A stretch of 60,429 bases of DNA, the filler included, from Dimargaris cristalligena (taxonomy: Eukaryota), in the NCBI GenBank assembly GCA_003614675.1. It is 2 parts of 2 records of this genome, joined end to end, with 100 filler letters (N's around TTAATTAATTAA, not from the genome) between each part and the next. Parts side by side here need not be neighbours in the genome. Positions count along the whole stretch, not along the records: positions 1 to 30,188 come from ML002464.1; 1 more part is not named here. One strand, given 5' to 3'. Numbering within the stretch: position 1 is the first letter of the stretch; every line of letters begins with the position of its first letter. A model generated the notes under the pieces. It was given only the letters and a program-made list of their open reading frames with translations, was not told where the DNA came from and made no database searches. This document shows, piece after piece, positions 1 to 59,196 of this stretch. The position numbers and the translations under genes were made by a program.

Positions 1-2215
1 GGGCCCCCTGGTCCCGCTTGGAGGCTCACCAGTGTTGGCCATTTTTGGCAATCGAGCAAAATACCAACTGGCGAATCGTCTACCCAAACTTGGTCGATTA
101 CGATGAATGTATTTCAACTAGATGAAATAGGAGCACTTAATACAAGTGAGGTATTGCATTAAAAAAAAAGTGGCAGTGTGGTTGCATGAATCGTGCATAC
201 GCCACGGCAGCAGCACAGTTCGATGAATCAGTCTACTACCATTTTCAGAACAAGGACCAAACGGCAGGAACAAGCATCCCTTCAAAAAAAAACCCACCAC
301 TGATATAGGAACTCAACGGGAGTAAATTCTTCGGTCCACAAATTGGTCCGCTTGAGTGGGCCAACCGTTTGAGGAATTGCGAAGGGTTGAACTAACGAGG
401 TTGGTAGGCATCCCCCCCAAAACGTAGCAATGCATGTACAGCACGTAACTTTACTAAAGCATGGATGAAAATTGACATTTTATATATGAAATACAGTTGT
501 ATGGACAAGAAGATATATCCCATCTACAGGTGTACGATACTTATGAAACTGGCCGAACTGTAGCCCACAGAATGTAAGCCCGTTAACAGAAAGCAGTTGA
601 AATAATCCCTGATTCAGTGAGGGATTGCCTACGGTTTTCTGTTGGGAAGGGTTCGAAACCACAACATACCCATGGTGAAGGTGACTCTCCGTTGAATGTC
701 AATGGTTGGGAATAACGCATGCCGTTAATTTTTTGTCTGGCGGTCTTTCAATAACCATGTACCCAATAACGGAACCTATTGAAAGTGGTAACTTGGGCAT
801 TGGTATATACCCCTATTGTTACTCTATCCATCTGATTACTGAGGAACCGTTTATGAAAACCTGACTCACTCTACACATAAGCCATGCATACCACTATTTA
901 AGGAGAGGTAGGTTGATCCGCGGTTGTCCTACGTTAGCACTATTGGTTATAATATGGACTTGAGAATGCTACATTTACATGTATGGTTTCATGGCCGCCT
1001 GCTTTTGTTGGATTTCAAAACCAGCACCCGCCCAAGGGTTACTGCTAGTATCTACTATACTTTTATTTCACAGAATACTCAGCGAGAGGGCCTTCCCATG
1101 ACGCGTCTATACAATGTGCTTCTATAGCACTCCCGGGTAAGAAATTTCTAGAGAGAGAGTATATGTAGAATATATGTATTGTTTGACTTACTTAACCTTT
1201 GCCCTTTCTCTTGTTAATTCCTTACCAATATACAACCACCTCGACTCTACCGCTTTATACTGACCTATGTTGCACCTAAAAGTATAGACCAGGGCCTGCG
1301 AACCCACCAAGCGTAGTGATGGCAATTAATCTATGGTGGGTTTGGGTCTGACTAACTATACTGGCATTGGGACTTGCAGGGAAGCAGTGGGAATAGGGTG
1401 TATATTAGGGAAACTGCGGTAATAACAATCTGTTGTTCCAGAAACAGTCCAATGAAATTGTATGTATGAGTATCCAGTGGGCTAGTGTATTCCGACTGTT
1501 GGGCGACTATGCTTAGTTTCAACTGATGCGGGCTAATTCTTTATCTGGGTACTGATATTCTGGGCGTGGTATTACTGACTCGGGGGGTCAAGTTGTGGAC
1601 TAATGATTCAGTAGGCCGTTTTCACATTAAACTACTATATGGGATGCGAGTGTTTCGTGCCACGGGGAGTTTTCTTCAAGGAAGCCCACGCCCGTAGCAA
1701 AGAACAAGAGTAGGTGTAGTAATAGTAGAAAAACCTTAACGATTTGGATATCGACTTTGTTACCTGTGTCTGGATGATACGTATGGGGAATGAATAATCT
1801 AGCTGTGTGACAAATGGTGTATTATTGACAAGACAGTGGGTAGTATTGGGCGAAAATATACATGCCGCCTGTTTCCGATATACAGCTGAGTTGCGTGTCG
1901 CGCAAATGCATATTGTGGCTTAGGAGGGCTGATCCCCATTGGGCCCCAACCACCTAATGGCTGATGCAATACACACTCTGTAGGGTCTTTTAGTATATAA
2001 CTTATCAGCTATCCCTGCAACGCAGGCTTCCATCACTTTGGATTCATTGGGTGAATATACCTATTCTCTGTTGGCCATATGACATGTGCCCCCTGTAAGT
2101 TGTGGACTTTACCCAATACAATAAACCGGCTTACATAGCCTATAACAATGCACTTCTTAGAAAGTACTTGAGCCAGTATCTAATATCTTCGAGTATAATA
2201 AGAGGGCTAGTATTA

Positions 2216-2319
2216 TTGGAATACTAAGAATGTAAAGAAAATAAAACTAAAAGTAAGGGAAGAAAACAGCTAGAGGACAGTAGATGCCTCTAGGTGGTTA
2301 GTTTTATTGAACTGTAATT
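2216..2319. repeat. Dispersed ~100-bp palindromic repeat, copy 1 (MITE/TE-end-like)
   Basis: Closely matches 30088-30188 (shared core GCTAGAGGAC.GTAG.TGCCTCTAGGTGGTTAGTTTTATTGAACTGTAATT). Contains nested inverted repeats AATAAAACT/AGTTTTATT and CTAGAGG/CCTCTAG. Confidence 0.8.
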
Positions 2320-3708
2320 TTCTGTAGGGTGAAATATAAGTGGCTAATATGAATGATCTCATGATATCAGAAAAAATTAACATAATTGGATGAAAATAGG
2401 ATAGGATAAAGAACATGTAGGAACATATTCTTCAATATTTTCTGACTGGGGCCCTATCACTTATTTTTATTATTATTTTCTTTCCACTTTTTCTAGTACT
2501 ATGCCGGTGTACATGGGTAGTACTGCTTACCCCAATACCTACTCTGACAATGGATATATAGTCTAGCCAAATGTACCTCATACCTTTACTGGTGCAGGTA
2601 ACACTGTTGGGTAGGTAATTGGACGGACTTGTCCCGATACTACCGATGACTGGATACTAATTGAAGTGAAACGTGGTGATGGAAAGGTCACTCTATGTCC
2701 TACACTAGTTTGGATGGCTTTGGGCACTTCTCATTAAAAAGGGTAATCACACACTTGGGATGCACCTGCGTCTCAAATAGCCCTAAGTAACTTAATGAAT
2801 ACGCGTAGTTTATGCATCTCTGTTGGATTCTATTGCAGCACCTTTTTGTTGCAAAGCATAGTGGGAATAAAGGCAACCCTACATGGGGGAAAATCAACAC
2901 GGCAGGCTAAGGTTTTAAAATGCTATGTGAGTGGTCAAATTGGCGGACCCTCTATGTTTAACCAGTAGTAGTAGTACGAACCTGGCGAAACGGGTTATTC
3001 GGTAGATTGCTAGGCTGGACTTATCCCGAATAGATTGAACGAGAAAACGGGGAGACTAAGGCAGGTATACCCCCGAGCAATACTGGTGGAACTTATAATC
3101 CTCCCCCTTCACATCAGCTAATCAATGCAGACGACTCGGAATAAAGGGTAGTACAGGGTTGGGTACACCCATCCCTTCCCTCCGTTCCTATCCAAATTAA
3201 GCACTATGGTATATATTCACGTTGGACACCGACAAATCGTGAGCTAATTGGTTTAATCTCCACTTTGAATAATAAATGCGTTGAGTGGTCAAATTCACTT
3301 TCCTCATTTGAACACTTGTACAACGGCTTGTCGTGAAGCAATATACGCAGTTGAAACGCCATAGACAATCGGCTCCCGCTAAATATATATACGTATACAT
3401 ATATATGAATTATGAAATTGCAAAGGCAGGTGGTTCAAATGGTCATTTCCCTCGTTGTCACCATCACCCCCGTAACACGACCGAGGCGGGATAATTCCCA
3501 GACACTCGTTTATAAATACCTGCCTTCACCCACCTCATTATAATTGACTATACTCAATTCCCTTTCTTTCAACTGGGCTTCACTGGGAATACTAACGTCC
3601 CCCCACTTCCGAATCTATCCGCATCCTCATTGATTACATCGTCGTATCCGCCGCCTCCCGTCCGAATAAGCCCTCCCCCACCAAGCCACTACGTTCGAGA
3701 TTCCCGCG

Positions 3709-5422
3709 ATGAAGTCCGTAGGTTATTCATTCACCCTGGTGGGCATGATGGTCGCCCACTGTGCCGTCGCTTACCCCTATCCCGCCATCGAGTCCCCCGT
3801 ACTCGAGTCGACCGGACTGGTAGTGGGCACAAACCCGCTGTCTAATAGCATAGGGTACTCGACTGGTTCTGGTGACCCAAAGGCACTTCCGAGTACCATG
3901 TCTAGTGGGTCCAACGGTGAGCACGATGACGGGTCATCGGTTAGCCACACTCGGAAACCCACACATCCCGGCCGAGCTCAGTTGACAAAGCCCTCGAACC
4001 TGTTTCCCAATGCCTTACCAAATGAATTGATCTGGCTGGTTGGTAAGCAACTTAACCCCCTGGATTTAGCCCAGGTAGCCCAAGCATCTACAACGACTCA
4101 AAAAATACCCCTCAGCAACAAGGATTATCTCAAAGCTGTCCATGTAAGTACACCCTTATTGTGGTTCCCAAAATGTAACCAAGCAGTGGCGCCTTACACA
4201 TGCCCTATCAACCGTCGAGGATGGATCGATTATACATTGATTTTCCATAGCGTTTCCTCCCCGCGAGATGGCTACATTACTGTAAATTCGACATGCGCAT
4301 TCCCCAGCCAGTTCTATATCTAATATTCGTATACCATCGCCCATATGCATTCATATTCATTTGACTCGGGCTGTCTAGGCCAAGAAATATATCCATCCCC
4401 AGATTACTGAATTGCTTTCTAATGAGAGTGAAGAAAGAGAAAATGAAAGTGAAAGTGAGGGCCACGAAGAAGCCCTAATCCAAAACCTCCTACCTGTTGA
4501 GTTTGCCAATGCCATGTTCCAGGGGCTCTACACTAAGCTCGCCGGCTATAGAATCACGCCGGATGGCCGACCGTTGCCGCTTGACGACCCGTCCAAAATT
4601 GACGACCAGAATGCTATTCGGGCTCTACCCGGCCTGGTACCGGGGCTACAAACGGTCTACGCCGACTGGTGTTATGTGCGCTTTGACCAATTGTCCCGCC
4701 AGCAGCTCTCTCATCTACTTCCCCTGGTTGAATTTTCCCTCTATAACGATGCTGAGCAACTCTGCAAGGTCACCGAAAAGTTGATTGGTTTGGAGACGCA
4801 AAAAGCCGGCCTCCTAAACCTAGTCGTGCCGTCATTCAGCGATAGCATTCCTTCCAATGGAGAACTCGATACCGAATTCGGTTCATACATGCCGAGTACC
4901 GGCGAGTCTAGATTATACAGTACCCTAATACCAGTCATGACCGGCGCCCTAGCGGCCGCCAAGCAATTCGAGAAACTCGGCGCGTATATATCCTGTGGTC
5001 TGGATTTTAGCGACCAGTACTTTGGCTTGGAGAATTTCTTGTACCTGATGGTCCTCGAATTCAACCTAAACGGTCTGGTGCGAGAGGCTTTGGCGGAATT
5101 TGGACGCGGTAGCCGCCGTTTATATAGGTGTGCCCAGTATTTGGGTTTCCACCGAGCTTACCAAATGATAATTGATGAATATGGCTCGCCGGAACCGGTC
5201 ACTGCTGACTTTGACTACGGTTTTTGCACCGCCCAGTATGGTACATATGGCATGATCCACCTGAGAAGTCCCAGTCCAACTGGCTCAAATGGTAGTGGTG
5301 GTGGTGTTGATACGTATCCCTCGATATCGTTTCGGGCCCTCCGGTCCGCTCTGCCCCAATACCCCGCATTACCCGAATCGGCCTTCGAGGACCAAACGGT
5401 GGTCGAGAAGCTGATCAAATAA
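3709..5422 (+). CDS. Secreted protein with N-terminal signal peptide and F-box-like motif, ~492 aa (exons 3709-4143, 4379-5422)
   Basis: Two ORFs join in frame through a GTAAGT (4144) ... CTAG (4378) intron. The hydrophobic leader is MKSVGYSFTLVGMMVAHCAVA, and residues ~103-140 LPNELIWLVGKQLNPLDLAQVAQAS resemble the F-box consensus. A TATA-like TATAAATA lies near 3511. Confidence 0.75.
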
Positions 5423-6570
5423 AGGACCATTAGATATTGTTTTTTTGCCGGGTCGAATCTCGAGACCAGTTTAGTTTGGTCCTAGTTCGATGGTCTATGC
5501 AATTGGCCACCCTTTTTACCCCAGCGCTTTCCCAATACTGATGCATTTCCAACTGTGCCTCGGGTAGCCATGATGGTTAATATTCCAGGTTTGTCCAGTT
5601 TCTACGGTGTAGTTACCTTTGTTTTTGTTTTTTTCATTCTGAACATTAGTTTAGCTCATCGCTTAATTTATCGAAATAAATAGTCTATAGCAGTAAGGCC
5701 GTAAACAAATAAAAAATACTCTGACCAGCTTGGTCTATATACTGTACAGCTTACGAATGGGCTGTATGTTAGGCGGAACTCTCTAAAGGTTCAATGGCTT
5801 TGAGGCCGTCATGGTATGGGACTCCATTTAACTTGTTACTTCTAACTCTACGGCTGGACGTAATTCCGCTAATACTGAAGCGTCATTACCCTTGCCCGAC
5901 GATAGTATGGCCGTGGACCAAAATAACAAGTTAAATGGAGACCCTGAACCCCCGGTCGTAGACGATGGGTAGAGCCTCTTCGTTATCAACAACGACTGTG
6001 GTCCCTGAGCACCTTGCCATGGCTCCCCAAACCACCTCGGATATGATACTACCGCGCATAACATAATTAGATCCGATAGATATAACGGGTGCTTCGCCTA
6101 CCATGTTAATATTTCTTGGTTTACTAGTGTCCCTATCGCTCACCTTACTTCGCTCCTATATACTCTACTTCATCTCTAGTTAATAAAAACCCGTCCATTA
6201 CATTCGCTAAACCAACAAGAGCATCCCAGTAATACCACGGTTAGACTAACTTCCCTTAAACGCTGCCAAAGGAACATCCAAAGGCCACACCAATACAAAA
6301 TAAAAGACGGGACAGCCCCTCCCATCCACACTATACAACCAAAATTGAGCAAACTACAGGCGATTTTTAGGAGATTCGTATATTTATATCACGGAATAGA
6401 AAGTGAATAGGAATTACGGTGGGGGTACTAATGAATAATGTAATAATAGATAGTGGAAGGAGAAAATATAGAAAAAGAGCCAGTCATTTATATATATATA
6501 TACATATATATATATAAATTGGTATATGAGAGGAAACAAGCAAGCAAAAATTCAATGAAAAATCAATTTC

Positions 6571-9500
6571 TCATTGGCGTTTACTACCCTTGCGGGTCGT
6601 AGTTTTAATGGTGGTAATGAACGACTCGGGAGCAGGAATGGAGGCTGCCCGCAACCGAGCGCGTTGTTCGGGGGACATGTAGGCGACTGGGGCGGTACTG
6701 GGGGGGGAAACAAGGTCGTCTTCCGTAAGGGGCAACGGTTGCTGCTGCTGGCGGGGTGACAGACCAGCGGTAGAGATGGTCGCGGGCGCCTTGCGGGCCG
6801 AGCCAGATCGGCGCCGGTGGAGGTGGTCGTGGTCACTGTTATCCTCTTCTTCCTCACTCTTGGCATCTTTGTCATCGAGCAGCGACTTAGGGGAGGCCCC
6901 CAATAGCTGGTTCTGGTGCAGAGCATTCAGAGACTCAATGGGAATAGTGATGGGGGAAGTCGCGGATTGGGCCGCCACGGAAGGGGAGGTCGCTTGCACA
7001 ATGTGGTAGTTCTCCATGGGGTGGCGCTGCTGGGGCGTATGGTCGGGATTGATGACGATGGAGGGGTTCCGGCTGGGGTGCAGGTAATCAGCTTCATCAG
7101 AATCCGATGCAGCGGCAACTGCTACCACCACAGTGGAAGCATCACTGCCAACAGCAGTGGCGCCCTGGCCAGAGGTACGGCGAAGGCTTTGGTTTCCGTC
7201 GCTCGAAGCAACGAACTTGGCTGGCTCACCCCGGGAAATGGGGGGCGATGGTACCCGCTCGAAGAACTGCTGGGGACTGGTGAGGGTGCCCAAGGCCCGC
7301 CGCATGTGAGAGTTGATGTACTGCAGACCCACCTGGTAACTGGCGTTCATCCAGCCGAAACCCTCGCGAGGCACGTACTTGAAGTCGGTTCCCACATTAC
7401 CGTACTCGACCTTGACCTGATGGGTCAGGTTGACCACGTCGAATTTTTCGGGCACGACACCATTAAAATCGACAAAGGATTTGGTGATAGTGTACAGCCA
7501 GCGGTAGGCCAGACGGCTGGCCAGGTCGGTGTAGTTGTAGCGGCGCAGACCTTCCCAGGCGATAATCTGGTGAGGGGCCCAGCCGAATGGGTAATCCCAC
7601 TGCCGGTTGGGACGATCGAGGGAAATGAGCCCGCGGGACTCTTCGGTACCGCAAACCAATCCACCAATCACCTCGAACTTGGGCAGACTACTCTGGAGCA
7701 TGCGGGCGGCCTTGCGCTCGGACACGCAGCCGGCCCACAGGGCGTAAAGGGTGGTGACAGATTCGTATTCGGACTGCACCTGCTGCTTAACGTCATAGTC
7801 GAAGTACATGCCCTTCTCTTCGTTCCAGCAATAACGGTCAATGGACCGGCGGCGAGAGGCGGCCCGGTCTAACCACGCCTGGCTGGTCTCGACAGTGCCG
7901 TTGGCCAGAGGGAATTGGTCATTGAAGACCTGCTTGATGGCATCGGCAATATCGGTTTCGTACTTGTAGAGCAGGGCGTTGAGGTCGATGGTGGCCAAAT
8001 CAGCGCAACGCTTTTCCAGGCGGTAGGTGGTGTCGTGGCCCGACTCGCGCACGGCCCGATCGTGGACGAAGTAGCGGTCCAGCTTAGGGTTCTGGACCTT
8101 TCCGGTATTGTAAAGCACCTTGTACTCGTCGATGGTGACGCCCATCTTGATGGCGAAGGGTTCCAGAATGTGGTCAAAGTGGGTAGATTCGGTTTCGGGG
8201 GGCATACCGATACCGGTGGGGTGGAAGCAGGAAAGGCCGGTGAGAGGGTCGAGGCGAGGGGCGATCATCCAGACGGTGTAGTACTCCTTGATGGCGGAGG
8301 TCAGAGCCTTGCGGAGCCACTCGCGGTTCGCATCGGCTTGGTCACTGGGCAGGCGCTCAAATACCTTGAGGGCCATGTCGGTGAGGAAGGGGGGCTGGGA
8401 CCGGGTGAGATAGTAACTACGGTTAGCGTTGAGGATCTTGCCGTAGTGCTCAATGGAATACACGAAGTTATCCACCATGTTCTTGGCCAAGTCAAGGCGA
8501 CCGTCGACAATCAAGCCGAGGGCTTCAAAGTAGGAGTCCCAGCCGTACATTTCATTGAAGCGACCACCGGGAACCACAAAGGAGACGGGTTCAAGCAAGG
8601 TCTGGCCATTCTCGTCCACACTGGTGCGGATGTCCAGGGCGAGAATGCCGGGGCGGTCGTTGATGCCCTTGACGTACTGGGGGGTGATATCCTCAGGTAG
8701 CCGAATCAACTGCAGGTTCAAATGGGGGCGGGCGGCGGCGATGGAGGCGTAGTAATTGTAGGCCACGTCGTCGTTATAGGGGATGTAGATACGGGGGGTG
8801 TGGTCGGCACCCAGGTTCTTGGGGTCGGCACAGATGATTTCGAGGCCGTCGGCGTCGATGCGCCGGGTGAGACCATCCCAGAAATGGAACTTGATCATAC
8901 GGGAAAGGCGGTCGACGGGATTCTCGTTGAGACGGGTCTCGTCAATGATGATGTGTTTACGGCCGTTGTCCTTGGCCAGGGCCAGCTCCTGCAGTAAATT
9001 GGACAGCATGTAGGTGCCCCGCACATCGAATTTCTGGAAACCACCAGAGTCGGCGGTACCCACCTTGAGGACCTTGGGGCCCATGTCGTTGACGGTGATT
9101 TGGCAATCACCATCGGTATCCTCCTGGGCGAGGATGAGTTTTTCGGTCTCTTCGACATCAATGAGGAAACGACGGGGCTTGATGGACTTCTCGTCGTGGG
9201 AACCACGCCGCCGGCGCCGGTATTTGGACTCCGGGGCGGATTCCAGGGAAACCTGGCGCATCTCGGGGCGGTCAGTCTACATGACGGGAGGGGGAATTTG
9301 GTTGGAAATGGTCAAAAGGCAGGTGGGTTAATAACATATTGGCCCAATGAACAAACAGGCGGACTATGAACTAGGTCTCGGGACATACGTGGGTGACACA
9401 ACAATCATTTCAGGTGATCGAGTGAAACCTAGGACAGGACGGCTTGAAGCTAGGCCCCAGGTTAATGCACACCCCCGGCCGAAGCTACCACTGGGCAACA

Positions 9501-11399: not shown

Positions 11400-12400
11400 C
11401 CTATATCTATTAAGCACACTGATGAAGCCATTCCCGCTGATAGCGCGGTATGTGTGTCACCCGCACACTTATCTCTCCCCCGCTTCGTCCTCGTCCTTGC
11501 CCTCACCCTCCTTCTTCTCCCGACTAATACTGTCCTACCCTTCCGCACAATTGCCGCCGTAGATGAGTAAACTAATTGCTCTATCTATCTATACAATAGA
11601 CCTCTATATTCCTTTAGGACAGATATCTTCATCAATATAAGGTAGGACAGGCCGAAGTGTTAACCAGCTTTGTGATTGGGCTGGGCGGATCCATCGGACC
11701 CCATGGCCTATCACAGATGCGAAGTCCTCCAAGTTGGCGTCACTGGGCTGTTTCGAACAACACTCCGGCACTACCGCATTAACGAGTACCGCCCATATCT
11801 CTCTCCCACCCTTCCTCCCTTTCTCACTCACTTCCCTCCTACACCTCCCGCTTTGGCCCCTCTCCCCTCTCCTGGGCTGGTCGTTAGGACCCTAAGGTAA
11901 AATGGACTGGCCATCAGTAATGGCCTGCTAGTGGATAAGGTCGGGGACGCAAATTGGTCTGTGTGACTCCGACCTGTCCATAACCACCGTTCCTCCCCTA
12001 CCCGCTCGCCGAATTTCGGGTAATCCCCCCCTCCTCTCCTCTTATTTCTTGAATCACGCTAAACTGCATTAGTATGGGTTTCTATATATAGCGACAGAAA
12101 CTATAACTATCCGCAGTCCTTTGGGGGGCCGGGAACGAAGATGCACCCACCCTCCTCCCCGCGTGCCGGTGAATAAGGGAATGTCCGTCCGTATTAACTA
12201 TAGAGACTGAGCCAATGTAAGTGGTAGTCCAATAGGCATAGAGATTCAGGGTGTTGCGTAGTCCACAGTCGTAGCGGACTGTCATCCCCCCCCCCAATTA
12301 TCCGCAACCTACTCGACCGAAATCTTCGTCACTGACCTCGTGATATGTGTGACCCTCCTACCCACCCAGCAGCATCGCTCGATGACTTTTTTATTATATA
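11400..12400 (+). ncRNA. Putative spliced non-coding or short-ORF transcript with micro-exons and structured introns
   Basis: Donors GTATGT 11448, GTAGGA 11642, GTAAAA 11897 and GTAAGT 12217 alternate with acceptors TAG 11599, TAG 11887, CAG 12116 or TAG 12203, and CAG 12369. Introns are ~150-250 nt with branch-like CTAAT/CTCAC/CTGAC. No long ORF is present. Confidence 0.35.
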
Positions 12401-13551
12401 TATATATATTTGATCCTTTCCATCCTATACCTCCCGAACCCGAATGTATAATCCCTCCCCCACCCTTCCACCAACCCCTTCAGGACGATGCCAGATTGTA
12501 AGGATGAGGCAAGGGGTGGTTTAAAATGAAATGAAATGGCACTATAATAATATAAGTACAATAGCACCGAGAATTGAATCCAGATGATCAAGACTTACTT
12601 ACACCTCTCATCACCCGCCCTCTCGCTGGGGGTATTGTTCCCCCCCACTCCACTCTACTCTACTCCACCCCACTCTTTGCTCATACTTACTTCACCATGC
12701 ATGAGACGGACTGATAGAGTGGTTCTTGAGTACTTTTTGGCGACAGGCTTGTACTTTATCAGAACGGACTCACCTCCCATCATTATCTATTTTTTTAATA
12801 ATAATAATAAAATAACCATTGATGGATAGAGTAGCAGCCACCCAATTGCCAAAATGACCACGTTTACCTCTTTCCCCTACTAGGTAGTGGTCCACCCCAC
12901 CCCCACTGGCCGGTCCCATTGCATCGGTCTTACCATCATCAATCGACCCCCAGTGATTTTGTGACAGCCTCGTGACTAATGGCCCCTAGCAGGGGTCCGT
13001 GTATAGGTATGACAGCCCATTTTACACAGCAGCAACAGGGGAGTGGTGAAGAAGGTGGTCACTTATATATATATATATATATATATCCTATAGATAAAAT
13101 GAGGGGAGTCTGGAATAGAGAGCGACCCTCTCCATCAGTCGACCCACACGTCCACCCCATCAGTGCGTGTACATCTCTCATCTCATTATGGAGCTGATAA
13201 AGACTGAGGGGTTCTTAGATCACAATTACAAATCGGAGCCGTACAGGGGAGGAGAGAGAGGTGTCATTGCTTGGTAAGCAACGGAGGCTCTGTATACCTG
13301 ACCAATAACGATGAAGGAATAAAAGATTTCTCCTCAGCGAACCCACCCTCCCTTGTGTATCGCTCCCTCGCCCTCATTGCCATATTTCCGGCTTGTAACA
13401 CACTCACTTTTCCAGGCGGCCACCCTGAACTTCGTTACTTTGATGCCAACGTCAGCCGGTGACGTCTAAAAAAAACGCACCAACGTGTGGGGAGGGACAC
13501 CACACCACACCACGTACTCCACTCCCGACTTGGGATCTTAGTATCTATCCA

Positions 13552-13595
13552 TCCATACATACATACATACATCCATACATATATACATACATATA
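13552..13595. repeat. (TACA)n microsatellite
   Basis: Directly visible. Confidence 0.8.
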
Positions 13596-14670
13596 TAGAC
13601 ACACACGCGCAAAGTAATAATGGAAAGCGAAATCCCAGTCACAATCTATCTCACCTGGAGTGTGCCAATAGTGGACCCCCCTCCACACTGTTCTAATCAC
13701 TAACCCTAATACTAATAATCCATCAGAGTAAGTATGCGTTCCCTATATATTGCCCCTTCCTTGATTCGCCGAGAAAAACAAAGCTGTATCCCGCCACCAC
13801 GCAAGTCGAGAGTGTATGTGTGTGCCCCTCCTTCCCATTCTCCTCATTGGTGTAAATCCCTGAATGTCGGTACGGTAGCATCGCAAGGCGGATTTCGGGG
13901 CTCTGTAATTAACTTTGGCTCTTTTTGGCGATTTATTTGATTATATTTTGACGTATTTAGGTTGTCCAATCAAAATGGTACATCATGGCTCACTTGCGCC
14001 ATTTTGTGAGTCACCTGATCTCCGACGTTCCATTTGGGGTGGCGGCCATCTCTCTGTCTCTCTCCACTCGTTCCTGTTCTTTTCCTTCTTCTCTCACTCT
14101 GTAACAAGAATAAGGAGGCCCTTGCCAATTATTTTATTTACATTTATATTAATATTTTTGGGGGTCAGTGGAAAATCCCCCCACTTCGCTTCCATTTGCC
14201 ACTACACTACATCAAGGAAAACAATCGACTCAGGGTGACATTAACATGGCCGTATTCTAAATGGTGCGATTGACTGTCCCATTCATTAAGCGTATTAAAT
14301 GGAAGGCCCGACTAAACACCCCCCCCCCTATAAAAGTAGTATATTACTACTACTAGTGGAGTGAGTACGGCCCATAATGACTCGCGGGGTATTTGCAGGG
14401 TGGCGGCTTATTGTCAGCAGATTCCCCCTCTCCCTGGATCGCAGTAGTGACTCGTTATCCCCCCACCATGCGTGGCATGCAGCTAAATAGGAAAAGGGGG
14501 CCCGGGGAGAAGGACAAGAAAGAGAATTTAGCAGTCCCAACAACGGACTGATTTATTGCACGGATTTTTAAGGGAGTTTTGGATGAATTTTTGATGGACT
14601 TCAGTCCCGAAGGTTGGGGAGAAGGGCACCACCACCTCCCACCTATGGGCATATCTTCGGTCTTATTTAT

Positions 14671-14718
14671 ATATTATTATTATTATTATTATTGTTATTA
14701 TTATTATTGTTATTATTA
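14671..14718. repeat. (TAT)n microsatellite
   Basis: Directly visible. Confidence 0.85.
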
Positions 14719-15549
14719 AAATGTGATATTATGGGGGGGGGGGCGGGGGGAAAGAGATACATATGACTTCCCAATTGGAGACGAAGCCACGGCTATGATT
14801 AATTCACATCTGCAAATTGGCCATTTGTAAAAACGAACGCCTACCGCTTCGCCCAAGCGAGTACCCAAGAGACACTAACTGACTCACTAGTATAAAGGAA
14901 AGGAGAGGGATGCTTCGCCCCATTTTCCGATCCAATCCCTGGCCTCTAAAGGGGTACATGGCTATGCGAATATTTTTATTTGGCTCACTCGTTGTTGTTG
15001 GGTGCCCCTGGAAACCCAAGTCTTTTCCCGTTCTCTATATCGCTCATCCGAAGGGGAGAGATATAGTGTGTGTGTGTGTTTGTCTTTAGGAGAATTCACT
15101 TGTCCCGTCGCTATTTTAAGAAATCAATCATTGTACTATTTATAGCACCTGATATATCCTTTGTAGGTATTCTTTAGGGGTCGCCTAAGAACTAGAGAGT
15201 TGTGACTGCGAAGCTACACTGTTCACTATCTCCTGCAAGTTTAAAGACAACAGCCGTCTTGGAATACGTGCAATTCGAACCCTTTGATTAAGGAATACCG
15301 GTGTCTACAGTTTAATATTCCTTTTCAAATTCTTTTTACTTGGCTCTCTTTAACCTGCCCCACATCTCATCAGTAGGAGGTGACGTCTAAGGTGATCCCT
15401 TCACCCCTCGTAATACCCATCGCCCAGTATACAAATGGCGTGACTGGCAGAACTAGCCTAGGATGATGATTTTAATTGGTAAGTGATGGATGCTATTGAC
15501 CATGTAACGTACGAAGCTTTTCTTCATTTTTGTCAACATAGGTATATAC

Positions 15550-15584
<35 letters not shown>

Positions 15585-18500
15585 ACCGACCAGTAAAAAT
15601 CCAACCTTTAACCCAGATGTTTGGCTTGATTATCCGCGTTTCAAATCTTGCATGGTTTCCTAGGCCATATGGATTGGTCAAAGCAAGGCATAAGCCCAAA
15701 CTGCCATGTCGATCCCACCTGGGGGAATGGTCCAGCAAGTAAAACTTAATATATACATGACCAAAAGATCGGCGTTTAGGTTTGTGGCTGTTCCAACTTC
15801 AGTATAGTATATAACCTTCATTGGTGGAACAATTTAGAGAAGGGTACTTGTCGGATTATACACCATTACATAATGGGAAGTACCAGTACAGCCAGACATC
15901 GTGTTCTACTATTGACCCATTTTCCCATTGAGTGAATATATGGGGTAAATCGAGACCGAAACGGAGAGAGATGGTGAGTGCGAGAGAAACGGAAAGGGAA
16001 ATGAACCCCTAAAAAGGCAATTAAAGAAGCGCCTGTTTAAAATATGGGAGGACTGTCTCCCCCGGGGTTTGGAATTCAATTCCCTTCTTTCCCGATGACG
16101 AGTCGCCTTATCCGCCGGGTTTAGTATCTCCTCTACCTGGCCCCATCCCCGCTCATCTAAATAAAGACGGGGTTGTTGTGGGGTTCAGGGTTATCTTTGT
16201 TTTAGCGCGGCTATCAGCTCAACGACCATGGTATGTCCGGAGAAACTAAACCGAGGCGGAGTGTGGGATACTGCCGCCCAACTTCCCACCCACGCCAATC
16301 CGGAGGTATGGACAGGCCTCCCAGCTTGATATGGCGTTTCAAAGGGTGGGTTTACTATGGTGTACGTAGGTGGCCACCCTTCTCCCATTCTCCTACTAAA
16401 ATAAGCCATCATAACAATATAGACATAACCAAACGCCAAAGTGGCAACCGTGCGCTTTTTTTTTGGTTGTTGTTGTTGTTGGCTCTATTAGTAGCCAATC
16501 TAGTAGAACGAGTGTTAGTATGTCGGTTTAGAGGTGTGCAAGGGTGGAACTCCAGCCTTTCAATGGATATTGGTTTTTGACCATGTACGTCTATTTATCT
16601 CACTTCCGAGCGTACAGTCCATACACTAGAAGGTAAGGTGCTCAGGCGTTTGTTGCGCTGATGTAAGGGGAACCAAAGTAATGTGGTTCTTTGGGATTGT
16701 TTTAAGTTCAATTAACCGTGTATCCGACTTAAAATAATCTATACACGGAATCAGTCGCCAGAGTCCCCCGGGTTCTTCCCGAATACCACTAAAATCAGAC
16801 CATTTGGCCCTCTAATGATATATGGCTTGTTTTAACAAATGAATATATAACGTCCTCCACTCGACTAGCCCTCTAACCCGCTTATTTTAAACATTTTCTT
16901 TTTCACCTACCCCACCCCCTCTTTATCTTCCTGCGACAGCGGCAACCTACTAAGCCACCTGTCCCAATCCCAATCCAAACCCCCCATTTCATTGATTGGT
17001 GCAGTCCGAGGGTTCAATTTAACACGAATAATTCCTTTCCTTCCATTAGCCGTCATTTCTTGACAATGAAACCTGAAGTCGAACACGTACACCCCTACAT
17101 GTACGTACATATACGCCTAGTAATTCCCATCCCCAGAGACCCCAGTAATAACGAGGAAACCGTTTTACCCGACCCATTGTATAGTGCACTATATTGCAGT
17201 GTACGGATCCATATATAGATATGAGGAGAGAGAAGGGTAAGGCAGAGAAAGTCACACAATAAGTTTTTACAAAGAAGAAACGTTCATTCCAACCCTTTTC
17301 TTATCCCGCCACCCACGCTATACACCCCTATCTGCGGCTTACCCAAAATAGCCAAATAACGTTAGTTTCTCTACTTCTACGGGTAGCATAGTAGTCCACC
17401 CTCATCCCTATTCCCCAATTTTCATGCAGTCCTGAGAGATTATAAGGTTTACCACACTTATGTACAGTGGATTGATTGGAATCAGGTCACTGAGCTGTAA
17501 GGGAAGACGGGTTTCATCTCATGTACTGATTAATCAGAAAACGAAAAATCCGAAAGCAACGACGATTACCCCAGACTGCTGGGCGTGGGGAGCCGATGTG
17601 GATGAGGGATAAGGTATGTGGAGAGAAAGAGAAGGAGGGTCATATGACCAATTTTAGATGATCTGGGAAAGCGATGGCGGCATTGATAACACCTTCCTTG
17701 TTGAGTCAAGAGGGAGATGATAAGGAGAGAAGGCCCTTCATGTCGCGCATGTGTGTAAATGTGTGTGTGTGTGTGTGTTGCAGCTTTTATTTTACTTTAT
17801 ATTTCATATTTTAAAATAGTAAGGATATTAATCATAGCAATCTGGGTTGGTATGGTCTTGCCTGGTAAAACTTATCGCGGTACTTGGTTAGCCGGTTGGT
17901 ATTTTGCCGCTTATTCGAACTGCGACCAAACATGGAATGTAAGGGTGGCGACAGTGCTTCGGGAATCTGGTTTAACCATCCGGTTGGTACACATGGGTGT
18001 GTTTCATGATATTTTTTCCACAATGATGCAGGGTGTCGACGGTGTTCCGGGGAAGTGCTGTGGTATAGAGGGTATATAGGTCCCGGAAGCGTCAAGAGCT
18101 CCCTTGGCGGTGGCAGTAGTCAGGCTGGAGTAATTGGGGACGGGGGGCTGGCCTAATAATAATACCTTGGGTATTCGACTAATCAATCAAGTTTATACCG
18201 CCTGTTCTTGAAGTTACCAGCCTGTAAAAGACCAGTATACCTCTTGGGCTATTTTATCCGCCGTTAATTTAGGCACGTCGAGAGGACTGTGGAAGTGAGA
18301 ACCCCCCAGCCATGAAAGCCGCCTCTTTTTCTAAATCTCGACTGGGTCGCATGGCCTTTCTATATATCCCCCCAGCATGTTTTCCCACTACCAACCAACC
18401 GGCCATTTACAAAGGCATCGGATCCGGTTGTCTATGGGCTGTGGGGTGCTATTGGACGGGTTGCTTGGGTCAAGTTGCGCTTTAGGGTTGGGTAAATAAA

Positions 18501-20220
18501 ATAAAACACTGCCACTATCAATTTGGGATAGGGGGTGGGGAAGGAATGCGAAGGCTGTGGGATTCCGCAACCCGTTAAGTCAACTCCACCGCAGTTTTGT
18601 TATGTATTTATTTGTATAGATATATCAGGTAAGCTAATACACCTATCCCACTGACAGGTATAGTCCATGCGGAAGGGGTAAACACTGGGGATGCATAACT
18701 CCACTATCGTTTAACCACCACGCCATAAGGCATGAAAAAGAGGAGATGGGTGCGTGAGTGGGTGAGTGGGTGGAAATGAGGTGGGTGAAAGGGTGGAGTA
18801 GATACGCTGGAGATGTCCCTCGATATGTGCCTGTTGGCATTTCACGGGGATGGATAAGAGGGGGTGGAGGATTCGGCGGGTATACTATGTAGCAATTGGT
18901 AATGTAAAATGTCAATGTGCCGCGCTGTACTATTTTATTCGCCTTTAATCCCCCCAAATCAGTATATCTATTTATATTTAAGTATTTGTGCGAGCACGAT
19001 GATTACCGATTTGAACTACTACTTTCTAATCATAGATCATCTCTACTAAGGAGAGGGGTTTTGCCAGGGATTCTTTCAAGATTCGTGATTAGTAGAAAGG
19101 GGGTGAGGGAGATGGTCACGGAAAAACCTGCGAAATGGTAACGAGGAGGCTGTAGATTTGGCATTCTATTAAACTCAAGATATGCCAGCGTACTATCCCC
19201 ATCTATGCTGGGAATAACGACCAGAGGTGGTGGTGGGGTACGGGGTATTGTTGGTGGAGACCGCAGTGGTTGCTTTGACGCGCATATCAATCAGCCGTAA
19301 ATACAGGGGAAAAGGGAGATGGTACTGCACGGATAGGGTGAGAAAGGATGTGTCACTGGGGTCGTATGCCTAATAAACCACTCTGCAACTCCGGGCCACT
19401 TTTAGTTCCCCAAGTCGAATGGTCCTTATCCATTCAATGACGGGGTATGAATGAGCCCGCCCAGCCATGGTGATGTTGAGCATTGCATAATCATTTCTTT
19501 CTTTTTCTTTGATATTTCGATGAGGTAGGCAATACCTGAAAGGATTCATCCGCACATTGTCCAACATTTCTTTAGAAACTATGCACAATTGAACTCGCAC
19601 ATGACTCGGCGCATGCTATTTTTATTTTTTACTGAATAGAAAAGTGGGATATAATTACATGAACCAAACAACAAGAACGTAGGTTCTTCGCCTAAAGATA
19701 GTACAGACACACCAACATCAGCCGAGTAGAGGATATCGATGGCCACAACCGAAGGTGGTTGGGGGGTCAGTGATTGAACCGGGTCGGATCTGCCAAAAAA
19801 TAATAATAAGAATAATAGTAATAGTAATAGTAATAGTAATATATATATTCTCTTATTAAAATATGGAGGGGAGGGGGAGGGTAAAATCCGGACAAACAGT
19901 ACGGTGAAATTCTTATACATAACCAGTCAAGGCGTAAACTAATAGTTAGGTAAGGAGAATAATAAACAAGGGAGGGTCCTGGAAAAGACGGAGTAGGTAT
20001 ATATATATATATATATATACGGGTCCTTTCACTCTTCATGGGCGTGAATGTGTATGCTGGGTTAGTGCCACGGTCCGCTACTCCAAATTATCCCACGTTC
20101 ATTAACACTGAGCATTTGAATTCCCGCCTCACTGCACCTCCGGTGTCAAGGACCAACCCCATCAATGGGAGAACGCCTTGGCTAGCTTCGCTGCCTATAA
20201 TTAGGGATGTCCCATTTAGC

Positions 20221-22335
20221 CTAATCGAGACCCCGTAAAAACCCGAAAATGAAATTCAAGAGTATGCCTGTCCATAAACCTAAAGTTCATGCAGTAGGTG
20301 GCGGATATACCATGAACCGAAAGGGGGGCGTGTGTAAAAGCGAATATATATATATATATAATAATAGCAATAGGTTAATATCATTCCAGGGCTCAATCAT
20401 ATATCCATTGAACCGCAATAGTAAATGCCAAATGAGTGACATTTAGGCATGTTATGCGGCCGAATTGATATGTCCATCACCCAAAGTACTAACACCAGCC
20501 CCACTCGCCCCAGTCTCTTCTTCAACGAAGCTCGTCCAGATGGTTTGCCGGGCCAGTTAACCTTACAATGTCTTGTGCAGTTGGAAAACATGCCAGATAA
20601 TTCAACTTACCGGCTTTGTGCTGCGGACTCATATTCTCCCGGTACCACAGTGCCGACAACATGCCCAGGAAGAACCCTACGATAAGTCCATTGAAAAGTT
20701 GGTTATAGCTTTCACCATTTACTAAAGTACACCAGCAAAAGTAAAACACACACACACACACAACGACAACCAACCAGCAGATAATGAACCAGCATCCATT
20801 CAGGACGAAGGAATATACATAATTAATCAGGATTAGTCAAATTAGCGGAGGAGGTGAGTTGGCGTGGTAAAGTAGACCGCCGGGATAGTGAGTAGGGCGG
20901 GAGTTATTGGTACATCAAACTTACCACCGTCAACGGCCGCATTCTGGCCTCCGTCGTCCATCCAGGTCTCTTCAAGATTGCGAATATTTTCATCGTTTTC
21001 TAAAAAGGCCCCCCCCCCGCATCAAATAGTATAGGTAGGTGAAGGTACAGTGGTGCCAGGCCAAGGCAGTTAGTAATAATACCGATAGCTTAGGGGTTGG
21101 GAGGTTCGTCGGCCTCGGCTTCAACCAATATTACATGCAATGTCTAACCAATACACCGATATATGTGTTAGGCATAACCCCCTTGCTTACCGGCATTGGC
21201 ATTAGTGCCTTGGAATAAATGGAATTGCTGCCGAAAATTAGCAATATCCTGCTCCGAAAAGCCGGCCTCCCGCAAACGGTCGAATCCCACGGGCCGATTG
21301 TGATTGGAGGCCTGTATCAATGTATATAGAATGGGTATATAGGTCAGTATTAGCAAGATCGGGTTAGACTATATCACATGTAAGGATGAATATGTCCATA
21401 TGTATATATATAAAGTCCGTGCTGTGTCATAAGGTAGATAACCTAGGACCCACAACAGCCGGCGGGGTGAAAAATAAATACATAATAATCCGTCAGATGA
21501 CCACTTACCGAGTCTTGTTGGGTAGTTGATTCCGCCGGTAGATCAGCGGGCTCTGGGGCGTCCGAGACTGAACAGTGTATAAAAATCGGGAGATCCCCAC
21601 CCTCTTCCGAGCCTGGTGTTGTTCCCGCCCGCTGACTAAGTTCCACTGCGGCCCCTTCGGACTGTTTGCCCCACCGCCGGGCTGACATGCCCGCTGGTGG
21701 GGTGGCCGACTGATAGGCGGAAGACGTACTTGGACCACCCGGTACGGTAGCAGGTGTCGAAGCGGGTGGCGGGGCTGCCGATTGGGCTTTTTGGTTGATT
21801 TGGCTGCGTAGGGAGGGGTAATCGATCAATTGGGTGTCCGGCCGGAGTAGCTGGCCGCTGAAAATCAGGCGGAGTTGTTTGGAGGCGAGTGGAGGACGTA
21901 GGACACTAATCTACCCATAGCGTGAATTGATTATAGTAATATAGTCATTCCAAAACAAAAAGAAAAAAAGAGCCAGTGGGTGGGATGGGTTGAAAGGGGG
22001 GGGGGGCAGGGTAGAATTGCCCAGGGTTTGCTATATAATAGTGGGTTAGCATGTCTCTATTACAGGGATAGCCATAGTAGCTCGTCTATTAGGTATAGTG
22101 GCTCATTCTGGAGGGGTTGAGATGCTGCCTTGCTGGGTTAGTGTATCAGTGTAGGGGGGGGGGGAATTGGCAGGAATGGGGGAGTTACATGTACACTTAC
22201 CTCATTCTTGACTTGGTTTACCGAAGCATCGGCCGTGGTGGCCAAATACAGGTCAGGCTGGGTATCGTTGAACCGAATACGAAGTCGAATCGGCCAGGCG
22301 GCGTCAAGCGCACCTTTTGGTGCATGCAGAGCCAT
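20221..22335 (-). CDS. DSC3: DSC E3 ubiquitin ligase complex subunit 3 (UBL domain + C-terminal TM); exons 22335-22201, 21910-21509, 21311-21191, 20999-20925, 20721-20611, 20279-20221
   Basis: The spliced product contains IRLRIRFND..PDL, LRLIFSGQLL, FIHCSVSD, GFDRLREAGFSEQDIANFRQQF, RNLEETWMD and GLIVGFFLG...GLWTGILLNFIFG. All junctions are GT-AG with consistent phases. Confidence 0.88.
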
Positions 22336-23772: not shown

Positions 23773-23810
<38 letters not shown>

Positions 23811-23966
23811 GTTGGAAAAATAGTAGTTGATGCCATTATCTACCTGGGCCATAGGAAATAAAGGGACGAGCATGTGTGGTATATAGAGAGATCCGAAGCT
23901 AACCCGCGTTCCATCATCCCCCCCTCCTTTAATCGATATCTCCCAAACCAAATCACCGTTCCCGGT

Positions 23967-26149
23967 TTACTTTGACCGCTGCTTCTGTTTCTTAGCGATC
24001 CGCGACGAGCCTTCGAATCCCGGCCGCTGTTTCTTCTTGGGCGCCGTCTTCTTGACCTTTTTACCCATCCGACGGTCCTTGATGGCATCCACCCGGGACT
24101 GCAAATTCGCGTTACGCTTCTCCTGCCGTTTCTGGACCATATCCTCTACTTGCGCTTTCCGCTCGGTCCATTCCTTTTCGCTCTTCCGCTTCTGACGCTG
24201 CTCCCGCTTGACGCTCTTCTTCAGAAGGCCCACGTCGTCTGTTAATTTTTTGCCCTCGGCCAAATCGGTCAGGCGGGACCATTTCAAAGTTTCCTGGAGT
24301 TCGGCGTGTTTGGTGGGGTCACTCTCGGCGAGTTCGGCCAGCTTTTGCTGCTTTTGTTGGACTTGGCGCAGCTTCTGGGCCGTGCTCAGGCCGGCAGATT
24401 TGTGGCCCTTCTTGATGGCGGCTTCTTCTTCGGCCGTCATGCGGAAGGCCGCGGGTGTTTCGTCATCGTCCGGTGCCTTGAAGTCTAACGAACCAAACGA
24501 GACGTCCTCCTTCACAACGGACCGACTGGTATGCGACTTGGCTTTGGATTGGGAATTGGAATGGGTGGCGTTGGAGGAGGATGGGCCCGCGCCGCCCGGT
24601 TGGGTCGAGCCCATGTCCAATACTGACTGGTGGAGATTGGGCACATAGCCGGCCGAAGTCTTGTCCTTCTTGGCCTTCGCCTGCTCCAACTTCCTGCGCT
24701 TCTCCCGGTTGGCCTTGATCTCCTTGGCCGAGCGGCCGCTACCTTCCTCGTTGGTGGAGGTGCGGTTGGACCGGAGCAGGGCGATACGCTCCTGGAGACG
24801 GGCCCGTATATCGGACGCGTCGCTATTTTTAATGACCGGGCTGATATCAATTACTACATGGGAGTGGTACACGATCGAAAGACCCAACGGGTACAGTAGA
24901 TCAAAAAATAAGAAATGTAGTCCGAGAGAATGAGTTTCCGAGGGAGGAGCTGAATAAAGACCCTAAAAGGGGAGGTGATGGAGGGGGGTGGTACATTAGT
25001 TAGATCAGGGGAGATTTGCCCCGTGGTACGGGCGGCATACTTACATTCGGCAGACAGGTCAAACTTGGCTACTTTGTTAGAATGGCCATTGACTTGGCCA
25101 TCGGCGGTCGAGGCATTATTATCATCCTCCTCCTCCGCGGCATCCTCGGCCTTGGCGCGCTGTGCCCGTTCCTGTTGGATTTCGGTCACGCTGTGCTGGC
25201 TTTCCGGATCGAACTGGGGATTAGATAATACCATTTACATGTACGATATTTGGTAGGAGAGGAACACAGAAGATCTCAGGGTTAGACGTGGATCGCTAAG
25301 TAAATGATCACTTGCAGGAAATGATTGCTGAAATATTAACCGAGAGACACGGTGGCGGGAATATGAGGGGGGGTCCCCCAAATCCAAAGACTAAATATAG
25401 AGGGAGTGGTGGGTTGCCTACCTTGGCCTTCTTGGTCACTTTGTTTTGAAACCGGCCATCGGTTTTTTGGGGACGCTTCTTCAGGTGCTTCATATACCGG
25501 GAGTTCTGCGTTTTATACAATTCAGGGAGAACGGCAGGGAATGGTATGCGGTATATATGTATTGGGGCGGGTGTGGTACAAGGACTTGGTTAGTCATGGG
25601 TAGGTGCGTATGGATGCAACTCTTAAGATTTCGGACGTATGGTCCAAATATGGTCGAATGCAAGGGTAATAATGGGAAACGACACTTACCCCTTCGTCAA
25701 CGGAGGTCTCGACAAAGTAGTTTTGGGGCGGGATGAGATTGAGGATGGAGTTGAAGACGGTTTCGTGTTGTTTTAGCCGGTCCTGTATATATATATATAT
25801 ATATATATTTGTATTGGGGATGTCAATGATGATGGGGTCCGGGGGATAGAAGGGATATGGTTAGTAACGTACACCAAGCAAGGCAGTTTAGCTAGTTACT
25901 ATACACACCCATTCCCCCTTTCGTGTGGCCTATTGGGATATATGCAAAAATGCTATAGCGAAAGGAGGACACACACGCCTCACTTGGGTCGCAGGGGGTT
26001 GGGGAGTATTTCTTTTCTGCAGTGCGAATAAGTCAGCTCCACCATAATAGTTTTGGTTAGTTAGGGTTAGTCACGGCCTCGTGGCGAAGGGGTATAAAAC
26101 GGTACCGTATACTTACCACCAGCTCATGGGGGTTCGCAAGGACGGTCAT
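23967..26149 (-). CDS. RRP14: Ribosome biogenesis protein Rrp14/SURF6; exons 26149-26117, 25782-25690, 25505-25422, 25213-25045, 24853-23967
   Basis: N-terminal DRLKQHETVFNSILNLIPPQNYF...KKAKFDPES and C-terminal SURF6 domain EGKKLTDDVGLLKKSVKRE..KRKSEKEWTER..RPGFEG. Confidence 0.9.
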
Positions 26150-30087: not shown

Positions 30088-30188
30088 TTGGAAAACTAAG
30101 GACTTAAAGGAAATAAAACTGGAAAGGGAAGAAAGCAGCTAGAGGACGGTAGGTGCCTCTAGGTGGTTAGTTTTATTGAACTGTAATT
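30088..30188. repeat. Dispersed palindromic repeat, copy 2 (truncated by assembly gap)
   Basis: Closely matches 2216-2319 and ends exactly at the N-run. Confidence 0.8.
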
Positions 30189-48663: not shown

Positions 48664-48930
48664 CCGCTTCCGCTGCCCGGGTCTAGGTTTTCACTGGGGT
48701 TTATGTTTATCCACCCGTTCGGCCTTCTCTGGTTCTCTTGTTCTCTCTTCATTCTTTTATTATTATTGTCTTTATTACTTGTGTAGCGCTAGTATTCGGC
48801 CCCTAGCTACTAGAACCTCTCCCCCCTTCCTTGTTTGGTGGTGTAAGGACCCGTTGTTTCACTCCTTGCTCTTCGTTTCTCCCCTCTAAACCCCTTTCTT
48901 TCCGTTTCTCTTGCCACTCCCCCCCTCGCC

Positions 48931-59165: not shown

Positions 59166-59196
<31 letters not shown>

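Follow-up and report, generated by a model that had tools for sequence, protein, structure and literature searches.

A leader-bearing family of divergent F-box-like proteins in Dimargaris cristalligena: candidate mimics of SCF substrate adaptors

Bacteria, viruses and one insect are known to mimic F-box proteins; Agrobacterium VirF and Legionella AnkB are further bacterial F-box effectors, and the SSGP-71 proteins of the Hessian fly (Mayetiola destructor), a very large family, bear signal peptides. To our knowledge, almost nothing is known on the means by which haustorial mycoparasites of early-diverging lineages manipulate the fungi they infect. Here we describe a gene located at positions 3709-5422 (plus strand) of a 60,429-nucleotide stretch of DNA from Dimargaris cristalligena, which we take to be a haustorial mycoparasite; the whole stretch was analysed and is referred to as the window. 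The 492-residue product consists of four parts, namely a signal-peptide-like leader, a disordered linker, a probable divergent F-box and a family-specific helical domain, and belongs to a multi-copy family that might act, as we tentatively propose, as mimics of the substrate adaptor of Skp1-cullin-F-box (SCF) ubiquitin ligases inside the host. The preliminary description of this locus had supposed, conditionally, that the organism was a mycoparasite, which agrees with its deposition as D. cristalligena and with the part of PMC9866270 considered here, where Dimargaritales are described as mycoparasites.

The SSGP-71 effectors form a multi-member family in which an N-terminal F-box is followed by a variable target-binding domain, with at least one member devoid of the F-box, and are reported to interact with host Skp proteins and proposed to mimic host F-box proteins (PMC4617103). 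As far as the relevant part of that paper goes, the Dimargaris family shares with SSGP-71 its origin in a eukaryotic parasite, the multi-member organization, the joining of an N-terminal F-box to a variable domain and the idea that F-box proteins of the host are being mimicked. It differs in that SSGP-71 carries a C-terminal leucine-rich repeat (LRR) domain and is directed at a plant host, whereas the Dimargaris proteins carry a helical domain without assignable family, would face a fungal host and are proposed to bind Skp1. No sequence relationship with SSGP-71 was detected, all 21 matches of an exhaustive family search being of the Dimargaris type. Among bacteria, Ralstonia RipG7 is given as a precedent for a pathogen F-box protein thought to plug into the host SCF (PMC4617103). 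The RipG/GALA proteins, VirF and AnkB all resemble the Dimargaris family in having a pathogen-encoded F-box that presumably engages the SCF ligases of the host, but they reach the host through type III or type IV secretion and combine the F-box with LRR or ankyrin partners, whereas the Dimargaris proteins start with a eukaryotic signal-peptide-like leader; no homology with them was detected. A fungal case is NLS_30765 of Rhizophagus clarus, a predicted secreted protein matching Pfam F-box-like with an E value of 2.8e-07 and proposed to disturb host SCF signalling (PMC4746824). Both NLS_30765 and the Dimargaris proteins are fungal, secreted in silico, F-box-like and known from prediction alone. 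NLS_30765, however, comes from a plant symbiont, is presented as a single conserved candidate and not as a family in the part of the source that concerns it, and was absent among the Dimargaris relatives found.

The gene and its parts are as follows, with numbering along the window and amino acids (aa) numbered along the product; confidence values are the predicted local distance difference test (pLDDT) of the AlphaFold2 (AF2) model.

3709-5422, plus strand: two-exon gene, exons 3709-4143 and 4379-5422, product of 492 aa
3709-4143, plus strand: exon 1, coding for aa 1-145 with leader, linker and F-box-like stretch, 100% identical to residues 1-145 of database protein P0003 by tblastn
3709-3771, plus strand: signal-peptide-like leader, aa 1-21, MKSVGYSFTLVGMMVAHCAVA then YPYP, with MK n-region, hydrophobic core and AVA/YP (the slash marking the predicted cut)
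3772-4011, plus strand: disordered linker rich in S/G/T/P, aa 22-101, AF2 pLDDT ~30
3856-3903, plus strand: semi-conserved patch GY(P/S)TG..DP..L..TM(P/S), aa 50-65, from alignments of the closer paralogs, the rest of the linker being variable
4012-4143, plus strand: probable divergent F-box, aa 102-145, LPNELIWLVGKQLNPLDLAQVAQAS..., from sub-threshold Pfam matches, family profile against PDB and AF2 helices
4144-4378, plus strand: intron of 235 nt, phase 0, GTAAGT...TTGAC...CTAG, the stretch skipped exactly by the deposited protein
4379-5422, plus strand: exon 2 (aa 146-492 and stop; 347 aa), open frame, tblastn
4415-4459, plus strand: acidic Ser/Glu stretch SNESEERENESESEG, aa 158-172, not conserved in paralogs
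4451-5419, plus strand: family-specific all-helical C-terminal domain, aa 170-492, AF2 pLDDT 80-95

The ATG at 3709 is the first one downstream of an in-frame stop, within a stop-to-stop open reading frame (ORF) spanning 3670-4323. Joining position 4143 to 4379 maintains phase 0 and yields 145 + 347 = 492 residues, and the resulting product is letter-identical to P0003, the hypothetical protein H4R33_004399 of D. cristalligena (492 aa), which is recorded on two contigs in the protein database and bears the automatic UniRef name 'F-box domain-containing protein'. When P0003 was aligned to the window by tblastn, exactly the two exons were returned. The earlier view that two ORFs at 3709-5422 make up a single spliced gene is thus borne out by an exact match to a deposited protein and, judging from the sequence, this is a real two-exon D. 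cristalligena gene whose model agrees with the deposited annotations. A gene-model artefact or a pseudogene, in which the two ORFs would not be joined or the locus would not be expressed, appears highly improbable. The intron does contain an in-frame TAA (4321-4323), so that an unspliced message would end in a 204-aa product, and several paralog models are partial or truncated; however, the splice signals are canonical with a phase-0 exon join, both exons are open, conserved with respect to the paralogs and colinear with them over the junction, and the same 492-aa protein occurs on two contigs.

The leader is arranged as MK, a core including ...FTLVGMMVAHC... and A-V-A before YP, with alanine at both -3 and -1 and one lysine at the start. 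Its hydrophobic core spans 12-14 residues, and the Kyte-Doolittle profile reaches a 12-residue maximum of 2.04 at residue 10, the 19-residue maximum being only 1.45. The net charge is +1 before the core and -2 over the 15 residues that follow, none of which is basic in this copy, and no second hydrophobic segment occurs anywhere in the 492-aa protein. Cleavable signal peptides are defined by von Heijne's n/h/c and (-3,-1) rules, while according to the positive-inside rule the charge after the hydrophobic core decides on which side the protein body lies. The cleavable-looking AHCAVA/YP leader noticed at the outset is indeed present and follows the Sec-type pattern, with a positive n-region, an h-region within about 7-15 residues and small uncharged residues at -3 and -1. 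By these three rules we predict a cleavable signal peptide cut after AVA21, and the negative charge after the core, read with the positive-inside rule, predicts a lumenal position for the body of the protein. Two other readings of the leader were rejected. For a transmembrane anchor the core is, in our judgement, too short, the 19-residue value too weak and the charge distribution opposed, and a mitochondrial presequence is at odds, on inspection, with the single Lys, the lack of Arg and the lack of an amphipathic basic pattern. When residues 1-40 were searched among proteins 270-861 aa long, four candidates came up, of which only P0003 and P0007 scored, and no unrelated family sharing the leader was found.

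Comparison among paralogs identified the leader as the best-conserved segment of the protein. Its identity to this copy amounts to 18/21 in P0005, 20/21 in P0007 and 12/21 in P0008, and is far lower in the linker (32/79, 34/53 and 20/64, respectively). The same type of leader opens 11 distinct loci (P0003, P0005, P0007, P0008, P0010, P0012, P0015, P0016, P0020, P0022 and P0024). It is kept even in P0020, P0022 and P0024, whose overall identity is 18-30%, and members at about 20% identity retain the basic residue, the hydrophobic core and the small-residue site followed by Pro. The remaining family models, which do not start with a leader, are N-terminally truncated or partial, and P0025 shows an apparent leader tail. 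It was also observed that the conservation of the leader exceeds the needs of a generic signal peptide, with embedded His and Cys residues (AHCAVA) and, in several members, Pro at +2/+4 after the predicted cut.

These data bear on another view of the family as an ordinary lineage-specific expansion of SCF adaptors acting inside Dimargaris, the hydrophobic stretch being either a weak membrane or organelle tether with a cytosolic F-box, or bypassed by downstream initiation (e.g., at Met64). F-box proteins normally act in the cytosol or nucleus, and several observations agree with an endogenous role: the family-level F-box homology described below, the automatic UniRef name, a fungal F-box cluster as the nearest ESM-Atlas feature cluster (0.89, a lead only), the location of the gene among housekeeping genes and the in-frame methionines 13, 14 and 64. 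Mitochondrial outer-membrane signal anchors, on the other hand, carry basic residues after the core, unlike the 15 residues that follow the core here. An untranslated or bypassed leader would not be expected to be the best-conserved segment of the protein, nor to persist in distant paralogs; the short, weakly hydrophobic core does not, in our judgement, suffice to anchor the protein in a membrane, and the positive charge before it and negative charge after it predict a translocated rather than a cytosolic body. An endogenous function of this kind is, in our judgement, unlikely.

The F-box-like motif reported in the preliminary description at about nt 4015-4128 corresponds to residues 103-140, and the Pfam F-box-like family (PF12937) aligned at residues 102-128. 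In this copy the match showed an E value of 0.068 with exon 1 and 0.18 with the whole protein, scoring 12-13.4 bits vs a cut-off of 24.3; by such scores the motif is not beyond chance in this copy alone and is significant only at the family level. Scanning of 16 family members returned F-box-like at E<=1 in five and PF00646 in four, the best F-box-like scores being those of P0008 (23.6 bits, E 4.5e-5), P0007 (E 0.0023), and P0004 and P0006 (both E ~0.009), while 10 more distant members of the 16 gave no F-box match in Pfam. A profile was then built from the F-box stretch of seven members, a set selected for its visible motif, and compared with the PDB. At E<=10 it matched 13 sequences, 7 of which, the six best among them, belong to F-box proteins and align over the F-box itself, i.e., FBXW7 (E 2e-4 for the 63-residue 5ibk chain and ~0.004 for full-length chains), FBXW8 (0.01), FBXL3 (0.074) and FBXL5 (0.74). 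The whole-length family profile had retrieved only FBXW8 from the PDB (E 0.56), and restriction to the F-box stretch sharpened the search. The cellular proteins FBXW7, FBXW8 and FBXL3 are the best matches of the family's F-box profile, the alignment covering helices 1 and 2 of their F-boxes and entering helix 3; they differ from the Dimargaris family in their WD40 or LRR substrate domains and in exceeding the Pfam thresholds, below which the Dimargaris proteins remain. We know of no N-terminal export leader in these three proteins.

Conservation within the stretch follows the F-box core. P104, E106, V111 and L115 are invariant in six paralogs, and the LPxE(I/L)...L...L core does not vary among the closer paralogs and persists in P0020 and P0022, which are distant; identity to this copy over the F-box is 21/45 (P0005), 29/44 (P0007) and 17/45 (P0008). 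In solved complexes the LPxE core of the F-box faces Skp1. On sequence comparison the stretch is likely a divergent F-box homolog. The initial motif call stands as family-level homology, as indicated by P0008 (Pfam) and FBXW7 (profile), and falls short in that all 16 members scanned lie below the Pfam cut-off. A weak match to PRANC, a poxvirus F-box-like domain, was also recorded on residues 55-108 of P0012 (E 0.064, 14 bits vs a cut-off of 25.8), probably by chance.

The degeneracy of the motif would also suit a protein of the secretory pathway that descends from an F-box protein but has lost Skp1 binding and works through its helical domain, be it at the interface, on the cell wall or in the endoplasmic reticulum. 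The signal-peptide-like leader agrees with such a relic, as do the sub-threshold scores, the visibly broken or missing F-box stretch in five leader-bearing members (P0010, P0012, P0015, P0016 and P0024) and the fact that the strongest family motifs lie in the C-terminal domain and not in the F-box. We consider this quite unlikely, since the LPxE(I/L)...L...L core has been maintained up to P0020 and P0022, and since the loss of the F-box in some members has a parallel in SSGP-71, where at least one F-box-less member stands beside Skp-binding ones, as stated in the part of the paper considered here (PMC4617103).

The C-terminal part of the protein had initially been described as about 350 aa of helical domain without assignment, and the structural model agrees with this. 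AF2 was run on a 23-sequence family alignment (mean pLDDT 69.4, predicted template modelling score 0.66; a 6-sequence run with mean pLDDT 40 was discarded), and residues ~170-492 were modelled as all-helical at pLDDT 80-95. Motifs conserved in the family comprise DWCYVR.DQL..QL, FPLV, GALAA..QFDKL..YI, LEF.L, CA..LGF and SVSF..LRSALP....LPESAFED. Comparison of exon 2 with Pfam returned no repeat family at E<=10, leaving the domain without a Pfam family, and a search for internal repeats by hhalign self-alignment gave a best off-diagonal E value of 0.89. Foldseek searches against the PDB yielded no matches at E<=1e-3 (best 0.29), and the same threshold gave none in BFVD (best 0.029). The VIA wide search found 18 chains at Z>=5 and none at Z>=8, the best being Rpn12 (5.8 over 74 residues); these matches are a mixture of TPR, ankyrin and designed solenoids and fall within the noise range for helical models. 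Feature neighbours in the ESM-Atlas were the fungal F-box cluster mentioned above and ankyrin clusters (0.88), both below the level counting as more than leads. We describe it as a private all-alpha domain, possibly solenoid-like, which sits where F-box proteins carry their substrate-binding module.

The extent of the family was evaluated by a HMMER profile search over all 1.84 billion representative proteins, with paralogs counted in the protein databases. The 21 relatives matching at E<=1e-3 include 14 at <=1e-10 and 10 at <=1e-30, and their identity to this copy ranges from 18 to 62%. Exact look-ups showed that 19 of 20 relatives are named D. cristalligena, as are all six from an earlier search with exon 2, and the H4R33 assembly contains 18 locus tags for the family, five of them flagged partial, on different contigs. 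A word-indexed profile search, in which 8000 candidates were scored, returned seven already-known members and no new one, and tblastn of six members over the window detected 3709-5419 only, with no second paralog in the window. The exception in name is P0013 (SYNPS1DRAFT_30619), a 145-aa protein on a 3.3-kb contig labelled Syncephalis pseudoplumigaleata, which is identical at 135/137 positions to the N-terminus of D. cristalligena P0008 (H4R33_001308). Such near-identity is likeliest to reflect cross-contamination between assemblies, and not a shared gene or a second species carrying the family. As judged from these matches, the family is restricted to D. cristalligena in the searchable databases, where other Dimargaritales may have no proteins. 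The proteins thus form a lineage-restricted multigene family of a parasite with a variable C-terminal domain; its lineage restriction and multiple copies suit an effector family.

A conserved leader of the export type, a homolog of the F-box, a helical domain that is private and variable, and a lineage-restricted multi-copy family in a biotrophic parasite are together what a mimic of an SCF adaptor would lead one to expect. We tentatively favour, as a candidate role still somewhat short of even probability, a secreted, host-delivered mimic of the SCF substrate adaptor. The protein would enter the secretory pathway through its cleavable signal peptide, cut after AVA21, and the mature form, comprising the flexible linker, the divergent F-box and the helical domain, would leave the parasite at the haustorium, its interface with the host, and reach the cytoplasm of the host fungus. 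There the F-box would dock on the Skp1 of the host, a protein highly conserved across the fungi, and the helical domain would deliver host proteins for degradation by the SCF ubiquitin ligase of that same host, with the paralogs supplying differing target specificities. Parasite and host, both being fungi, presumably possess near-identical Skp1. Given this near-identity, a parasite F-box would dock on the host SCF without adaptation, and an endogenous adaptor could then evolve into an effector by a short path, through the gain of an export signal. The earlier suggestion of an undescribed effector family holds, at family level, for the leader, F-box and helical reading and for the lineage-restricted, multi-copy nature of the family, with the effector role as a candidate; the argument from genomic compartment finds no support in the window.

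Several points weigh against the proposed role in the host. The leader call comes from simple hydrophobicity, charge and -3/-1 rules, and signal-peptide function, secretion, host uptake, Skp1 binding, substrate recruitment and expression are all inferred. No member (0/16) reached the Pfam gathering score for either F-box-like or PF00646, and 11/16 showed no F-box-like match at E<=1, this copy being among the weakest that match. The AF2 helices assigned to the F-box (105-114, 117-126 and 138-145) have low pLDDT, 52-60. Helix 3 of the F-box usually carries a Trp, which is absent in most members, the W of FBXW7 and FBXW8 being aligned opposite T/L. The mature part contains three N-glycosylation sequons and five cysteines, which are neutral to slightly awkward for a cytosolic role. 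The family has been seen in one species only, which leaves no basis for correlating it with parasitism, and the literature searched gave nothing on protein translocation from Dimargaris into its host. Finally, the gene adjoins housekeeping genes, and the window is no repeat-rich effector compartment.

The automatic UniRef F-box name and pathogen F-box mimicry as a kind are already known. A literature search found no publication pairing Dimargaris with F-box, and among the titles and abstract openings retrieved for Dimargaris with secreted or effector proteins none concerned Dimargaris effectors. The main text of a zygomycete secretome paper (PMC9391592) contains no occurrence of F-box, Dimargaris or ubiquitin, and the part of the main text of PMC9866270 considered here, on zygomycete and Kickxellomycotina secretomes, mentions neither F-box proteins nor effectors of Dimargaris. 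In the main texts searched, no published account of the family, of its leader or of the effector hypothesis was found, and a family that combines signal-peptide-like leaders with a private helical domain, in a fungus-on-fungus parasite, is to that extent new. It provides a concrete candidate set, i.e., 18 locus tags in one assembly, which share the leader, the F-box and the private helical domain. If the proposed role proved true, F-box mimicry would extend to fungus-fungus parasitism and a new helical substrate-binding domain would be defined; if refuted, it would serve as a cautionary case of signal-peptide-like leaders on lineage-specific F-box proteins.

The linker, noted earlier as a low-complexity S/G/T stretch, is present and is modelled by AF2 as disordered. 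Its patch GYPTG..DP..L..TMP may be a short linear motif, possibly for sorting or uptake. In a more far-reaching form of the proposal, which we regard as doubtful, Dimargaris would export a dedicated F-box adaptor family via haustoria into the cytoplasm of mucoralean hosts and reprogram host SCF ligases, which would make it the first cytoplasmic and the first ubiquitin-hijacking effector family described for a fungus parasitising a fungus. The conserved leader (MKS..YS.TLVGM..AHCA.A/.P.P) together with the linker patch would then represent a family-specific signal for export or host uptake, with a role like that of the RXLR or PEXEL motifs. Downstream of the F-box, the acidic SNESEERENESESEG run gave a Pfam Vpu match (E 0.07-0.09) that was judged compositional and rejected.

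The surroundings of the gene were inspected along the window, and the following features were annotated.

3511-3518, plus strand: possible TATA box TATAAATA, 191 nt upstream of the ATG, read by eye from the sequence
6571-9261, minus strand: neutral trehalase (Pfam E 2e-166), 1.1 kb downstream of the gene and on the opposite strand
23967-24962, minus strand: SURF6
27660-29777, plus strand: GDA1/CD39
33342-34112, minus strand: 14-3-3
35942-36787, plus strand: Der1
37348-38127, minus strand: CCHC zinc-knuckle protein
40534-41676, plus strand: transketolase-like E1 beta subunit
42810-44318, plus strand: TPT transporter
46192-47733, plus strand: MFS transporter
48847-52149, plus strand: P-type ATPase
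52669-54420, minus strand: Utp13

The preliminary description had placed the gene in a gene-poor region near a dispersed repeat. This is weakly supported by positions 1-3669, which contain no stop-to-stop ORF of at least 150 aa and have a lower GC content (0.34-0.45), and by a 104-nt repeat; it is contradicted by the housekeeping neighbours and by surroundings that are not repeat-rich. A second ORF-poor stretch, again with no stop-to-stop ORF of at least 150 aa, occurs elsewhere in the window (11570-21443). The 104-nt repeat at 2216-2319 recurs 28 kb away at 30088-30188 with 87.5% identity (95% over a 65-nt core), and both copies lie in non-coding stretches. Intergenic microsatellites of the (TA)n type were also observed at 6489-6518 and near 13058-13086, 15551-15583, 23788-23815, 25775-25817 and 59159-59200.

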